A DNA stretch of 6,037 bases from a virus (taxonomy: Duplodnaviria; Heunggongvirae; Uroviricota; Caudoviricetes): IMG/VR virus record IMGVR_UViG_2609459804_000029, one strand, 5' to 3'. Below the pieces are notes generated by a model, which saw nothing but the letters and a program-made list of their open reading frames with translations, did not search any database and had not been told where the DNA came from. Shown piece by piece: positions 61 to 5,201 of the stretch (its first letter is position 1; each line of letters opens with the position of its first letter). The position numbers were made by a program, and so were the translations under genes.

Positions 61-1323
61 ATGCCAAAACTTACAGATATTCAGATCCGTGCCTGGATAA
101 AGGCAGACGAGAGGTTTGACGGCAAAGCTGACGGTAACGGCCTGTATCTCTGCTATCCTAAAAATTACACAATGCCCTTCTGGCGATTCCGCTATAAGTT
201 TGCTGGCAAACAACGGGCGATGGTTATCGGGTCATATGCAGAGTTATCACTATCCAGAGCCAGAGAAACAGCAAAGGAACTATCCGCCCGCGTCGCACTT
301 GGGTACGACGTAGCAGCGGAGAAACAGGAGCGTAAAGCCGAAGCACTGGCAAAAATGGAGGCAGAAAAAAACGCCATACGAGTATCAGAGCTTGCCGCCG
401 AATATTTCGAACGCCAGATCCTGCCGCGCTGGAAACATCCCGATATCCTCCGTCGTCGCATCGACAAGGACATAAACCCGCGTATTGGTCATATGAAGGT
501 TGAGGATGTAAAACCACGACACGTTGACGAGATGCTAAAAGCAATTGTTGACCGTGGAGCGCCAACCATAGCAACGGACGTTCTGCGCTGGACGCGTCGC
601 ATATTCGACTACGGGATAAAACGTCATGTGCTGGAGATTAACCCGTGCTCGGCGTTTGAAGTCTCTGATGCTGGTGGCAAGGAGTCATCCCGCGATCGCT
701 GGCTGACCCGTGAAGAGTTAATCCGGTTCTTTCAGGCCATGCGTACCGCAAAGGGATTCAGCCGACAGAACGAGCTAACCTTCAAGTTGCTACTGGCGCT
801 TTGCGTCAGGAAGATGGAGTTGTGCGCCGCCAGATGGGAAGAGTTCGACCTTGATAACGCCGTGTGGCATTTGCCAGAGGAACGCAGCAAAAACGGCGAC
901 CCCATAGATATTCCACTTGTTCCCCCCGTTATTGAATGGCTGAAAGAACTGCGCGTCTTGTCATGCAATAGCGCGTGGGTACTTCCGGCGCGGAAAATGC
1001 AGCACAGGATGATCCCCCACATTCAGGAGAGCACCCTACCCGTTGCACTGCAAAAAGTTCGCGCAGAGATGTCGGAGGTTCCAGATTTCACTATTCACGA
1101 CTTCCGCCGTACAGCACGCACACATTTAGCCGCGCTTGGTGTTGATCCGGTAGTCGCTGAAAGATGCCTCAATCACCGCATCAAGGGAGTCGAGGGCATA
1201 TACAATCGCTATCAGTATTTCGATGAACGGACTTCGGCGCTGGCGAAATGGACCAATCTGTTAGTGTCGCTGGAACGCGGGGAACGCTACAACGTGACAC
1301 CAATCAGAAGGGCCAAAGCATGA
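61..1323 (+). CDS. int: Tyrosine site-specific integrase, P4/CP4-57 (IntA-like) family
   Basis: 420-aa ORF; N-terminus MPKLTDIQIRAWIKA matches the LTD..I.A.K start typical of P4-type integrases; C-terminal HDFRRTARTHL and GIYNRYQY resemble the box II region and catalytic Tyr. RBS-like AGGGA 8 nt upstream of ATG 61. The ORF is open from position 1, so an in-frame start at 1 or upstream cannot be excluded. Confidence 0.9.
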   Translation: MPKLTDIQIRAWIKADERFDGKADGNGLYLCYPKNYTMPFWRFRYKFAGKQRAMVIGSYAELSLSRARETAKELSARVALGYDVAAEKQERKAEALAKMEAEKNAIRVSELAAEYFERQILPRWKHPDILRRRIDKDINPRIGHMKVEDVKPRHVDEMLKAIVDRGAPTIATDVLRWTRRIFDYGIKRHVLEINPCSAFEVSDAGGKESSRDRWLTREELIRFFQAMRTAKGFSRQNELTFKLLLALCVRKMELCAARWEEFDLDNAVWHLPEERSKNGDPIDIPLVPPVIEWLKELRVLSCNSAWVLPARKMQHRMIPHIQESTLPVALQKVRAEMSEVPDFTIHDFRRTARTHLAALGVDPVVAERCLNHRIKGVEGIYNRYQYFDERTSALAKWTNLLVSLERGERYNVTPIRRAKA

Positions 1324-1970
1324 TTAATATCCTGAAAAAATCGCCAATAGAACGCCTGTGCGCTTCTGTTTCAATCACTCCGCACGAAATGGCCCTTGCA
1401 CTGGCTGGCCTTAATCCGTCAATGAGAATAGGCGACGTGCCGCAGGACAAGTTCGAACAGGTCGAATCAGCCAGAACGATGATAGCCCGTGCTATCTGGT
1501 TGCATAGCGGCAGGAAAGCGGGAAAGGATGAGCCATACAGAGCAGGGGATATATTCCTTGCGTCCTTCCCGTTCATTGAGGCAGGAACGCCAGAGGCAAT
1601 AATTACGGCGGTAACTGATGCCATTGATGATTTACGAGGAACAAAAAATTGGGAAGAAAAAGCACTTAATCTTGGTGGGCGGCGGCTGGTCAGCCACATC
1701 AAAGAAACAAGCCGCAGCGGAAGGGGGCAGTACAGGAAACTCGACGAAGAACAGGGAAACATGAAGATGATGGGGTTGCTGGTTTTACTGCTCGTGAAGA
1801 AATCAGGCACAACCGCATACATTCAGGACGGAGAACCAAACCGTTCAGCCATTTACCGCGACGTGGAAGCGCTGATGAAGGAGAAAGGGATATCGCCAAA
1901 AGGGATCGCCAAATCCACGTTTATGCAAAAAATATCAGCCGCATTACTGGCAGTAAGCCAGGCAGATTAA
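1320..1970 (+). CDS. Hypothetical protein (216 aa), translationally coupled to int
   Basis: ATG 1320-1322 overlaps the int stop TGA 1321-1323 (ATGA); AAGGG 7 nt upstream. Antisense ORF 1304..1822 is S/C/P-rich and looks spurious. No motif I recognise (no HTH; GRKAGKD is not a canonical Walker A). Confidence 0.6.
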   Translation: MINILKKSPIERLCASVSITPHEMALALAGLNPSMRIGDVPQDKFEQVESARTMIARAIWLHSGRKAGKDEPYRAGDIFLASFPFIEAGTPEAIITAVTDAIDDLRGTKNWEEKALNLGGRRLVSHIKETSRSGRGQYRKLDEEQGNMKMMGLLVLLLVKKSGTTAYIQDGEPNRSAIYRDVEALMKEKGISPKGIAKSTFMQKISAALLAVSQAD

Positions 1971-2639: not shown

Positions 2640-3488
2640 ATGAAACGTCCGAATATGCCCGTACAGGGGCAGGGCTTCGTTCAGCCCGAAGAACTGAGCC
2701 AACAGTATTTCGCCGCAATTATTCCGGTATCACCTGGCATTATTGGCGGATATGAAACGGGCATTGTCAGCGCACGCGCACTGCATAAAGCGCTCGGTGT
2801 AGGCCGTGATTTCACTACCTGGATCAAAGGGCGTATTGAGGAGTACGGATTTAAAAAAGGTGTGGATTTTGAGGTTGTAGAAAATTTGTACTTTGATTCC
2901 CCGAAACGGGGGAGCCAAAGTGTAAATATTGAACAGTTTGATTCTGGCTGGACAACAAAGCGCGGCGGTGATCGCCGCAGTGAAGACTATTTGATCTCCA
3001 CGAACATGGCTAAAGAACTGGCGATGGTCGAACGCACTGAACAGGGCCGCGCAATTCGCCAGTACTTCATCAAATGTGAAGAAGAGCTACACAAGGCAGC
3101 GCCGGAACGTGCCGCAGCTTTGCGCCGTGAACTGAAAGCGCGTGTCACCGTTGCCAGTTTTTTTAAGCCTATGTGCGCTGCGCTGGAGTTGTACCGCGCA
3201 GAGCTGGGAAAAGAGACTCATCAACACCACTACACCACAGAATCAAATATGCTGGCGCGTATCGTGCTGGGCGGCATGACGGCGAAACAATGGGCGCAGG
3301 AGAACGGCATCAAAGGAAAACCGCGTGACAGCATGAGCGTTATGCAGCTTGAACACCTTTCCTACCTTGAGCAGAGCAATATCACGCTGATTGAGTTGGG
3401 TATGACTTACCAGCAGCGAAAAGCCGAATTAATCCGCCTTTCACAGCGCTGGCTGGCCCGTCGCATGGGAGAGCATGAACATGCCTGA
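2640..3488 (+). CDS. Phage antirepressor-like protein (AntA/AntB-type N-terminal domain)
   Basis: 282 aa; N-terminal SARALHKALGVGRDFTTWIKGRIEEYGFKKGVDFEV matches the AntA-domain signature; central STNMAKELAMVERTEQGRAIRQYFIKCEEEL resembles the conserved antirepressor C-terminal core. RBS AGGAG 6 nt before the ATG. Confidence 0.75.
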   Translation: MKRPNMPVQGQGFVQPEELSQQYFAAIIPVSPGIIGGYETGIVSARALHKALGVGRDFTTWIKGRIEEYGFKKGVDFEVVENLYFDSPKRGSQSVNIEQFDSGWTTKRGGDRRSEDYLISTNMAKELAMVERTEQGRAIRQYFIKCEEELHKAAPERAAALRRELKARVTVASFFKPMCAALELYRAELGKETHQHHYTTESNMLARIVLGGMTAKQWAQENGIKGKPRDSMSVMQLEHLSYLEQSNITLIELGMTYQQRKAELIRLSQRWLARRMGEHEHA

Positions 3489-3739
3489 CATCCTCAAACC
3501 TGCTGTCCGGTACATCGACACGGCGGATAAGTTCGCACTACTGAACATCAACCATGCGGATTACATGCGCCATATCGTGAGCCATTTCGCCGCTGAGCGC
3601 ATGAAACACGTTAAGCAATACTTGGGGGAGGTTTTATCAAATTATCGCGCTGGTGGCCCTGTACGGCGCGAATATCCGCATGATGCAGGAATGGCAGGCA
3701 AAACAAAGGCGACCACGAAAGGGTCGCCAGTGGAGATAA
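3475..3739 (+). CDS. Hypothetical small protein, possibly frameshifted at a G5 run (3624-3628); boundaries uncertain
   Basis: ATG 3475 overlaps the end of the antirepressor gene. The N-terminal ~50 aa look protein-like. A +1 frame entered at the G5 run reads RFYQIIALVALYGANIRMMQEWQAKQRRPRKGRQWR with preferred codons and stops at 3737-3739, leaving a clean gap before the - strand gene ending at 3795. The track ORF 3475..4521 beyond ~3795 is S/R/C-rich antisense-like read-through. Confidence 0.25.
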
Positions 3740-3794
3740 AGGAAATCAAGCGCATCACCAACTATGCCATGAGTGTAGCTGGTGGACAAGGCTA

Positions 3795-3983
3795 TCAGCC
3801 TGGCGGGCGATTTTTGGTTGCTTTTAGCCGCCGTGGGTATTTGTCCAGAAATGCCTCAAGCGCAAGTCGTTTTGGTCTGGTGAGAGGAGAGGGATTAAGC
3901 AAAGACTCTCGCTTCTGGCGTGCTTTTTCGCGCTGGCGCTCAATTATGGATAATGCGATTGCCTGTAATTCTTCGTTGGTCAT
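3795..3983 (-). CDS. Hypothetical small protein (62 aa), downstream of the RHH gene on the - strand
   Basis: Helical, charged N-terminus MTNEELQAIALSIIERQREKARQKRE; sits 57 nt after the RHH gene stop in the same orientation. Weak RBS and mixed codon usage in the second half. Confidence 0.4.
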   Translation of the reverse strand: MTNEELQAIALSIIERQREKARQKRESLLNPSPLTRPKRLALEAFLDKYPRRLKATKNRPPG

Positions 3984-4040
3984 TGTGTGCGCCTGTAAAG
4001 CAATGCGCCGGAGTTCCTCACACCACGGCGCTGATAGTGA

Positions 4041-4346
4041 TTATTCTGATTCTTTGGCCTTGCGGCGCTGGAGTTCTTCGCGTGCAACGGTGATAAGCTG
4101 CCCGATTTCCTCCGCTGCCTTGATGCCGATTTGTTCGACATTAGCTAGGGCATCCAGTGAAGACACAAGGGGATTTTCTCCACTTCCTTCTGCCTGGCGC
4201 CTGGCGATCTCACCGCGTACAGCCGTAACTATAAAATTCGCTTTAGTTTCCCCTGGCTGTAGGGATGCCTCAATGCCACTCACTACTTCATGTGGAAATC
4301 TGGCATTCAGTTGCTGTGACTTATTGTTAACAGAACTCCTGGACAT
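4041..4346 (-). CDS. Arc/Mnt-like ribbon-helix-helix transcriptional repressor (101 aa)
   Basis: Strong RBS GGGAGGTG before ATG (complement of 4344-4346). N-terminal LNARFPHEVVSGIEASLQPGETKANFIVTAVRGEI aligns with the Arc motif FNLRWPREVLDLVRKVAEENGRSVNSEIYQRV as I recall it. A ~50-aa helical C-terminal extension is reminiscent of Mnt. Start chosen at MSRSS rather than the upstream in-frame ATG at 4493. Confidence 0.7.
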   Translation of the reverse strand: MSRSSVNNKSQQLNARFPHEVVSGIEASLQPGETKANFIVTAVRGEIARRQAEGSGENPLVSSLDALANVEQIGIKAAEEIGQLITVAREELQRRKAKESE

Positions 4347-4376
4347 GTTTGCACCTCCCATTAATAACGGGATGCA

Positions 4377-4443
4377 GTGTAATACAAAAGTGAATACCAA
4401 AAAAGACTTGAAATGGTATTCACTTAAATGTAATGTGAATACC
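4377..4443. promoter_or_regulatory. Divergent promoter/operator: GTGAATACC at 4390-4398 and 4435-4443, inverted copy GGTATTCAC at 4415-4423, degenerate copy at 4377-4385; candidate rightward promoter TTGAAA (4408-4413), 17-bp spacer, TAATGT (4431-4436)
   Basis: Motifs read directly from sequence; the inverted copy lies in the promoter spacer and the third copy overlaps the -10. Located between the divergent RHH gene and the Icd-like operon. Confidence 0.45.
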
Positions 4444-4481
4444 ACAAGTGCTGATACATGCAATTCAGCAATTGAAACGAC

Positions 4482-4518
4482 GAAGCCCCGCAAGTGTCGT
4501 TACCACTCGCAGGGCTTC
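4482..4518 (+). other. Imperfect hairpin (13 of 15 positions paired, 7-nt loop) in the presumed 5' leader of the rightward operon
   Basis: GAAGCCCCGCAAGTG pairs with CACTCGCAGGGCTTC with two mismatches. No U-tract on either strand, so not a canonical terminator. Confidence 0.3.
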
Positions 4519-4546
4519 TAACCAACAACGTAAACTAGGAGCCGTT

Positions 4547-4744
4547 ATGGTTGCCGTAAATCATATACCACGTCTGGCGCACACACAAACGGCCTTTGTG
4601 TGGCGTTTTCTGGCCCTGAGTGCCGGAGAATCTCAAATCATCAACGTAACCGCCTGGACGGAACTCGAAGCGCGTAACCGTTGCCCGTCAGGTTGCGTTG
4701 CTGTATTCGCCGCCCGTATCCGTCAGGAGGCATCACATGGATAA
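4547..4744 (+). CDS. Small protein, host cell division inhibitor Icd-like family (tentative), copy 1
   Basis: 65 aa; RBS AGGAG 5 nt before ATG 4547; shares FVWRF...ARIRQE with the paralog at 5031..5201. Family name is recalled from P4-like prophage annotations and is uncertain. Confidence 0.55.
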   Translation: MVAVNHIPRLAHTQTAFVWRFLALSAGESQIINVTAWTELEARNRCPSGCVAVFAARIRQEASHG

Positions 4745-5030
4745 AAACATGTTGATCGCCTCTTCTTTCGGGCTGTATGATGCCGGAGTCGCCCACATGG
4801 CGGCCGGGTTTAGCAGCCTGAATACATCTGGCGGACAGCCGCCCACATCCGATAAGCGGTTTTTTTGTGTCCGTAAACCTACCCATACCCGCATTATGGC
4901 GGGGCGTAACGGGGGAGCCTTTGTGCTCGCTGGTTTCCAGATGACCAGTCTGCTAACCCTGTTACGTCTCGCCACCATGTTTAGCAGCGTAGTAGCGAGA
5001 CTCCTTAAAATTCATCTGGGAGCCTTTCAC

Positions 5031-5201
5031 ATGGCTGTATCCGCACGCCCTTACTTTGTCTGGCGCTTTATGCAGTGCCTGACAGACAGCATTGCAATAT
5101 TCACCGTTACCGCTGCCACTGAGCGCGAAGCACGCGCCCGGCTGCCGCACGCACATCTGATTTTTGTCGCCCGTATCCGTCAGGAGGTGACTCATGCTTA
5201 A
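5031..5201 (+). CDS. Small protein, Icd-like family (tentative), copy 2
   Basis: 56 aa MAVSARPYFVWRFMQ...LIFVARIRQEVTHA; RBS CTGGGAG 8 nt before ATG 5031. The frame is open upstream to ATG 4737 (strong RBS CAGGAGG), so a 154-aa fused product 4737..5201 is an alternative. Confidence 0.5.
   Translation: MAVSARPYFVWRFMQCLTDSIAIFTVTAATEREARARLPHAHLIFVARIRQEVTHA

Follow-up and report, generated by a model that had tools for sequence, protein, structure and literature searches.

Which function is encoded in the slot between the integrase gene and alpA of an Escherichia coli satellite? The question is raised by a 6,037-nucleotide stretch of DNA recorded as a virus of the Caudoviricetes (IMG/VR record IMGVR_UViG_2609459804_000029; hereafter the window), which matches E. 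coli chromosomes and forms the left end of a ~13 kb island between yicC and dinD in E. coli O157:H7 M1300706002 (locus L001) and O43 strain RM10042 (L002). Directly behind the integrase gene lies an open reading frame (ORF) of 216 codons plus a stop codon, here termed ORF216. A preliminary description of this DNA had presented it as an unrecognisable gene, translationally coupled to the integrase gene, and proposed an accessory or anti-phage function by analogy with P4-like satellites. The analysis described here led us to a different, tentative answer, to which we assign a probability of roughly 0.35: the ORF216 protein may be a satellite-specific DNA-binding regulator of the alpA promoter. 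The genes concerned are the following.

61–1323, + strand: P4-type tyrosine integrase gene (int), the first gene of the satellite, adjoining attL (Pfam, RefSeq)
1320–1970, + strand: ORF216, orphan gene for a 216-residue protein of the phrog_30524 family (ORF translation, profile match, AlphaFold2 model, substitution rates)
1320–1323, + strand: ATGA overlap of the int stop codon and the ORF216 start codon (read from the sequence)
2357–2572, + strand: alpA, gene of an AlpA/HTH_17 regulator, the next gene after the exchanged segment described below (Pfam HTH_17 2e-07, Phage_AlpA 1.5e-05)

The island is a satellite of the phage-inducible chromosomal island (PICI) type and not a canonical P4, since the annotation of the full island in L001 contains no psu, sid, delta or capsid gene; the comparison with P4-like satellites has to be amended in this respect. 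It has the same backbone as EcCICFT073, an experimentally studied PICI. AlpA is the master activator of Gram-negative PICIs (PMC6092414).

ORF216 is a real gene. Comparison of the window with a variant of 91% nucleotide identity in L085 gave a ratio of nonsynonymous to synonymous substitution rates (dN/dS) of 0.13 for ORF216 and 0.09 for int, and the gene is under purifying selection. Together with the full-length homologues, which reach down to 22% identity, and the fact that the 172-residue ORF on the opposite strand (1304–1822) is not annotated in any of the RefSeq records examined, this argues against a chance ORF. The ATG of ORF216 (1320–1322) overlaps the TGA of int (1321–1323), which confirms the previously described ATGA. 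The purine-rich AGAAGGG at 1306–1312, 7 nt before the start, corresponds to the plausible ribosome binding site that had been noted. According to the ORF listing a longer ORF is possible in the same frame from 1248. We nevertheless place the start at 1320, because RefSeq (WP_000608239/WP_000608240) has chosen the same coordinates with the same int overlap and because the first codons of homologues lie at the matching position, with ATGA in L005, L006 and L010, GTGA in L003 and TAATG in L015.

The position behind int is strictly conserved. The context set comprised every family member with enough contig sequence, which resulted in 14 lineages with 22–100% identity (the window/L001/L085, L003, L005, L006, L010, L011/L012, L014, L015, L016, L019, L041, L043, L045 and L047). 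A scan of representative genomes contributed two loci, and scans of IMG/VR and metagenomes returned close ORF216 relatives only. Throughout the 14 lineages, the gene directly follows a P4-type integrase gene on the same strand, and none of them contains a family member away from an integrase. In agreement with the coupling to int proposed previously, the two genes overlap by up to 4 nt or are at most 12 nt apart in 13 of the lineages, and L014 has a gap of 98 nt. Further downstream, alpA is found 270–650 bp 3′ of the ORF216 member in 13 lineages, L014 being without a downstream alpA. The elements themselves have different backbones, among them classical PICIs, a packaged capsid-forming PICI (vB_KppS-Ant), an Ogr/Delta element (L015) and a P2-type capsid element (L043), and they use yicC, der and an ADH gene as attachment sites. 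The protein is far more variable than its neighbour: the integrase of L010 is 84% identical to that of the window, the ORF216 protein only 35%.

In cassettes with ORF216 the gene is followed by a long AT-rich spacer, the promoter-proximal part of which contains a 12-nt box, TTTCAATRGAWT, in three to five co-oriented copies placed ~20 bp apart. Those of the window are:

2231–2321, + strand: TTTCAATRGAWT boxes in the same orientation, arrayed beside the alpA promoter (motif matches, comparison with L085, uniform test)
2231–2242, 2250–2261 and 2271–2282, + strand: exact copies of the box
2288–2299 and 2310–2321, + strand: degenerate copies of the box

The three exact matches fall within 52 nt, whereas both strands of the whole window together would be expected to contain 0.79. 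Comparison with L085 shows conserved boxes separated by variable spacers. For a uniform test of all loci, a box was defined by at most one mismatch to the degenerate 12-mer on the + strand within 200 bp upstream of alpA. At least two boxes were present in 10 of the 14 loci with an ORF216 gene and in none of the nine loci without it, the corresponding value for background windows of 200 bp being 4%. Variant repeats of the form YTTGNTGGAAW, missed by the uniform test, were seen by eye in L015, L045 and L047. The association extends to larger collections. The box region occurs in 90 complete E. coli genomes, which split by identity into 25 and 65, and close ORF216 variants give the same count with the same split. 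Among 36 IMG/VR contigs with the two-box pattern, three carry homologues of int or alpA, and the ORF216 gene is present in all three.

Two other explanations of the boxes were rejected. They are not tied to the AlpA allele, as the AlpA protein is identical in L003, which has boxes, and L020, which has none. Nor are they arm-type sites of the integrase. That role is probably played by GTGTACAYAA-like/ATGTACA repeats, which lie at 8–35 of the window, upstream of and across the int start, and in L001 at 11980–12035 and, at the far end of the island, at 24694–24722; these would be the arm-type sites of attL and attR. In L001, neither attL nor attR showed a box array.

Between the conserved genes int and alpA, ORF216, the boxes and the alpA promoter are exchanged as one cassette. 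The exchanged segment extends from the int stop codon to ~50 bp before alpA and hence includes the alpA promoter. Integrases with 85–89% amino acid identity at the yicC site carry unrelated genes in the adjoining slot: members of a mosaic family of 316–321 residues in L007 and L008 (68 clusters, all annotated as 'hypothetical'), 293-residue proteins in L009 and L020, and proteins of 307, 260 and 204 residues in L021, L022 and L024, respectively. In CP4-57 the slot holds yfjH on the opposite strand, and in EcCICFT073 it is empty. In total, at least six unrelated occupants, or none, were found in related elements. A filled slot has one co-oriented occupant in 21 of 23 loci examined; L016, with extra cargo, and CP4-57, with its reversed yfjH, deviate from this. 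The expectation that this position would be variable in related islands was thus borne out, with unrelated genes for 204–321 residues, yfjH or no gene in related elements at the yicC site, and the searches yielded neither a match to a housekeeping function nor an ORF216 gene that is invariant across the related elements.

The alternative cassettes have a different layout. They end in an intrinsic terminator, which leaves ~75–115 bp before alpA, and several of them start with the Rfam int-alpA RNA motif (RF02996; L007 7269–7335, 60.6 bits, E 1e-12). Inspection by eye placed it behind int in L009 and L014 as well, whereas the window, with its overlap of ORF216 and int, lacks the motif. The alternative slot proteins of L007, L008, L021 and L022 (for example L008 7273–8223) are mosaic, with variable middles and at least two different C-terminal modules, and have in common an N-terminal 'IPPxxYxxLxRAAxxLxC' motif that is AlpA/MerR-like. 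One module of 75 residues is 81% identical in the otherwise unrelated slot proteins of L007 and L008. Profile-profile comparison revealed no homology of the ORF216 family to the alternative slot proteins. A C-terminal module common to ORF216 and these proteins was considered and rejected (hhalign probability below 1%), as was an equivalence of the alternative slot proteins with YfjH of CP4-57, whose gene lies on the opposite strand and which shows no homology to them.

The family to which the ORF216 protein belongs has very few members: 19 clusters came from a word-seeded search of 5.8 billion proteins and 35, about 20 of them full length, with identities down to 22%, from a full HMMER profile search of 1.84 billion representative proteins. 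The preliminary description had recognised no family or motif. This holds for Pfam and NCBIfam, in which the protein has no family match, for the PDB, where sequence and profile searches gave no match at E values up to 10, and for PADLOC-DB 2.0, whose sole match, C3a146 'DNA binding HTH' (E 0.045, 11.7 bits), is not significant. It does not hold for PHROGs, where residues 11–209 align with positions 14–213 of the 220 positions of phrog_30524 (E 1.9e-31, 110 bits). This family is annotated as of unknown function; like the RefSeq entries WP_000608239/WP_000608240, labelled 'hypothetical protein', it establishes direct family membership with no function attached, and a literature search found no paper that names either. 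The Pfam, NCBIfam and PADLOC scans revealed no effector-type domain, whether nuclease, ATPase, TIR, membrane-spanning or other.

An AlphaFold2 model built on an alignment of 22 sequences (predicted local distance difference test, pLDDT, 91.4; predicted template modelling score 0.61) shows an all-helical protein with two domains. The predicted N-terminal domain comprises about residues 1–130 and is joined to the C-terminal domain by a long helix with a low-confidence hinge (131–140). Fold searches of the PDB and BFVD with this model gave no match, so that the protein is an orphan by fold as well. The isoelectric point of the C-terminal domain is about 9.3, that of the N-terminal domain about 6–8. 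The C-terminal domain also contains the best conserved motifs of the family, GRGxHRKxDE and KGxxKSTFxxK, which we read in the model as a putative basic arm (GRGxHRK) and a helix-loop-helix with KGxxKSTFxxK. In support of this reading, single members of the family match helix-turn-helix (HTH) families weakly (HTH_Tnp_Mu_2, Phage_AlpA and HTH_20), Phage_AlpA in one of 22 relatives with an E value of 0.024. In the N-terminal part, the motif 'ITPHEMALALAGLNP' bears a loose resemblance to the beginning of HTH domains of the Xis/AlpA type; a winged-helix domain of this type (Pfam PF05930, PF12728) was not recognised in ORF216 by either Pfam or fold matching. The PICI nature of the element and the idea of a variable slot beside the integrase are already known. 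A family with neither a characterised member nor a fold match in the libraries searched, and its association with a cassette and a box array, appear to be new.

Taken together, these properties fit a satellite-specific function better than random cargo, because the gene is found in this sole position, is co-expressed with int, encodes a basic C-terminal domain and no effector domain, and is accompanied by the box array. As a regulator of the alpA promoter, the ORF216 protein would be translated, like the integrase, from the int transcript of the integrated island. The basic, helical C-terminal domain would bind the co-oriented boxes at 2231–2321 upstream of alpA, and binding would set the level or the helper-dependence of transcription of alpA, the switch that induces the island. 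As ORF216 is expressed with int, we guess that it might act as a repressor in the quiescent state. With three to five co-oriented boxes about two helical turns apart beside a promoter, the array resembles the sites of Cox/Apl/Xis/Vis-type regulators, which bind arrays of direct repeats. Among them, Cox of P2 activates the promoter that precedes vis, the AlpA homologue of P4. These regulators are winged-helix proteins of ~70–100 residues, unlike ORF216 with its 216 residues, two helical domains and lack of a fold match. Helper activation by Cox is cited in the work on Gram-negative PICIs, where a global repressor is described as 'unclear' and the helper-encoded activator of alpA as one that 'remains to be identified' (PMC6092414). 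A regulator of this kind, in a swappable gene-plus-promoter cassette of the int-alpA interval, would bear on the question of how helpers switch on alpA and of whether such islands have a protein repressor at all.

Several observations weigh against a regulator of the alpA promoter. EcCICFT073, which shares the backbone, is fully inducible with neither a slot gene nor boxes; the function of ORF216 is therefore dispensable for the PICI life cycle. Furthermore, with the C4/CI-type antisense RNA immunity module of the island, there is no obvious need for a protein repressor. Four of the 14 ORF216 loci have fewer than two boxes in the uniform test. Finally, the link between gene and boxes is correlative: as neighbours, they could owe it to shared descent of one cassette with no functional tie, and the counts carry no phylogenetic correction.

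A more specific version of the regulator would have a precedent in Stl (Rpr), the master repressor of Gram-positive PICIs including the Staphylococcus aureus pathogenicity islands. Like ORF216, Stl is a highly divergent satellite protein encoded next to int. ORF216 likewise adjoins the promoter of the gene with which the satellite cycle begins, where the repeated boxes may be operators, and a coupling to the helper may be proposed by analogy. The two systems differ in orientation, Stl being transcribed divergently from its target operon, whereas ORF216 is co-oriented with alpA and transcribed with int. An N-terminal HTH is recognisable in Stl and none was recognised in ORF216, and a search for homology between the two gave nothing. 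That the family is a new-fold, Stl-like sensor-repressor switch of some Gram-negative satellites, which would be made with the integrase, sit on the box array and be displaced or converted by a helper-phage protein, we regard as unlikely. If true, a swap of the int-alpA cassette would re-wire which helper induces the island.

The strongest competitor is the proposal that ORF216 is accessory cargo, most plausibly with a single-gene function against phages or other mobile genetic elements, made constitutively with int in the lysogen. We consider this little less probable than the regulator. Cargo would be expected to vary among elements with 85–89% identical integrases at the same attachment site, as the slot content does, and to diverge much faster than Int, as the protein does in L010. 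In keeping with cargo, EcCICFT073 functions with an empty slot. In metagenomic locus L016 (1070–5542), an Abi_alpha gene and, on the opposite strand, a gene of an Mrr-like nuclease lie directly after the family member and before alpA, so true cargo can enter 3′ of ORF216. The slot also corresponds in position to the start of the int-psu hotspot of P4, where cII directly follows int (PMC9122126). That hotspot lies between psu and int next to cos, and spans ~1–5 kb; its genes may have either orientation and often belong to known defence systems (Rousset 2022; PMC9122126). Both loci have variable content directly 3′ of a P4-type integrase gene and a high turnover between conserved flanks, and P4 cII, a single co-oriented gene after int that is followed by a terminator, is like ORF216 in position. 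A homology of ORF216 to cII was rejected, as BLASTP and hhalign were negative and the NCBIfam model (sce7726 family, NF033832) gave no match. The likeness to the hotspot, on which the preliminary description had relied, does not go much further: the ORF216 slot is followed by alpA, contains one co-oriented gene with no defence match, and belongs to an island with neither psu nor sid. The idea of a defence function gains no support from PADLOC, with its best E value of 0.045, or from the domain searches, which revealed no effector-type domain. Defence genes are usually found in many contexts, whereas ORF216 members with usable context are found behind an integrase in 14 of 14 cases and nowhere else. 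Cargo would moreover leave the linked, conserved boxes at the alpA promoter unexplained. Should ORF216 be a defence gene after all, it would constitute a new system of one gene, whose fold, predicted with confidence, matches nothing in the libraries searched.

A partnership with the integrase, as a recombination directionality factor or as an architectural or regulatory cofactor of integration and excision, would explain the translational coupling to int, and the overlap or very short gap is conserved across the family. The loosely Xis/AlpA-like N-terminal motif and the single Phage_AlpA match point in the same direction. However, 85–89% identical integrases at yicC work with unrelated neighbours or with none, the protein diverges far faster than Int, and the boxes differ from the GTGTACAYAA arm sites and do not recur as an array at attL or attR. 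AlpA/Vis-type proteins, moreover, already provide the excision function in P4 (P4 annotation; PMC6092414). We therefore judge such a partnership to be very unlikely. Hardly more can be said for a role at a second set of repeats in the spacer, which ORF216 might bind as an origin- or centromere-like site of the excised element in the AT-rich region 2040–2109:

2040–2069, + strand: short repeats CGTTCTTAAT/CGTTATAAAT/CGGTATAAAC, phased at 10 bp (repeat inspection)
2090–2109, + strand: short repeats TGGCAAAAGA/TGGCAAAACA, phased at 10 bp (repeat inspection)

Such 10-bp phased repeats occur in the distal spacer upstream of alpA in every satellite examined and are lineage-specific, so that every lineage has its own set between the ORF216 gene and alpA. 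In P4, an ori with 8-bp and 10-bp repeats occupies the equivalent position upstream of vis, and P4-like GTTCACC/TGTTCATC repeats are present in L006 and L019. EcCICFT073, however, has six phased copies of AACAACNNGN upstream of alpA (L087 8190–8250) with no ORF216 gene. For this reason phased repeats were rejected as partner sites specific to ORF216 and are not counted as evidence on the protein. In addition, the ori of E. coli PICIs has been mapped next to pri-rep (PMC6092414), the repeats of the window do not recur elsewhere in the island, and no ParA-like or Rep-like partner gene was found, nor did the ORF216 model match the fold of Rep proteins. An origin- or centromere-binding role thus appears most improbable, and a regulator of the alpA promoter remains the reading that we prefer.

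The 3′ end of the int-ORF216 transcript may lie shortly behind the stop codon of ORF216, where a hairpin is predicted.

1978–2002, + strand: GC-rich hairpin with no U-tract, just 3′ of the ORF216 stop codon (folding)

The 81-nt stretch that includes it (1960–2040) folds at -16.9 kcal/mol, with a z score of -2.4, and a comparable hairpin is found behind the stop codon in each of L003, L005 and L006. A consensus scan did not find a canonical terminator at this hairpin, and no promoter-like or terminator-like signal above chance was found in the region 1–2700 of the window.

In some genomes the family gene is disrupted by insertion sequences (IS) of the IS3 family or by frameshifts, from which we conclude that its loss is tolerated. 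In L004 (7995–9471; E. coli MDR_56), IS1203 is inserted after about residue 72. Protein P0019 is a fusion of the family protein to transposase HTH domains, and P0017 is also among the disrupted cases.

The integrase of the satellite matches the Pfam families Arm-DNA-bind_3 (E 6e-20), Phage_int_M (3e-17) and Phage_integrase (2e-16), and RefSeq places the start at 61. In L001 and L002, int, ORF216 and the AlpA-type HTH gene are followed by antA, Icd-like genes, several small hypothetical genes and the genes of a primase, a single-stranded DNA-binding protein (SSB), a ProQ/FinO protein, a PerC protein and a Q-type antiterminator. In the stretch with the Icd-like, small hypothetical and primase genes, two further proteins are encoded in the window, one YlcI/YnfO-like (minus strand) and one with DUF4222. 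Satellites with an ORF216 gene are found in strains of O157:H7, O145 and O111, and the PerC-type proteins of the annotated islands L001 and L002 are virulence regulators.

Behind alpA, an AntA/AntB antirepressor-like protein is encoded at 2640–3488 (+ strand), residues 184–270 of which match the PADLOC candidate system PDC-S22 (E 2.5e-11). The 348-residue ORF at 3475–4521 (+ strand) is probably spurious. It overlaps two family-supported ORFs on the minus strand, at 4041–4349 (YlcI/YnfO; phrog_6522, E 2e-46) and at 3795–3983 (annotated in L001). The antisense immunity module mentioned above is of the P1/P4 type and lies at 4775–4979 (+ strand), between Icd-like ORFs at 4547–4738 and about 5030–5195. 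It contains a C4 antisense RNA (RF01695, 72.7 bits) at 4892–4979, together with a sub-threshold match to the a1/b1 target (RF03163) at 4775–4824 and an isrK-like match (RF01394) at 4788–4866.

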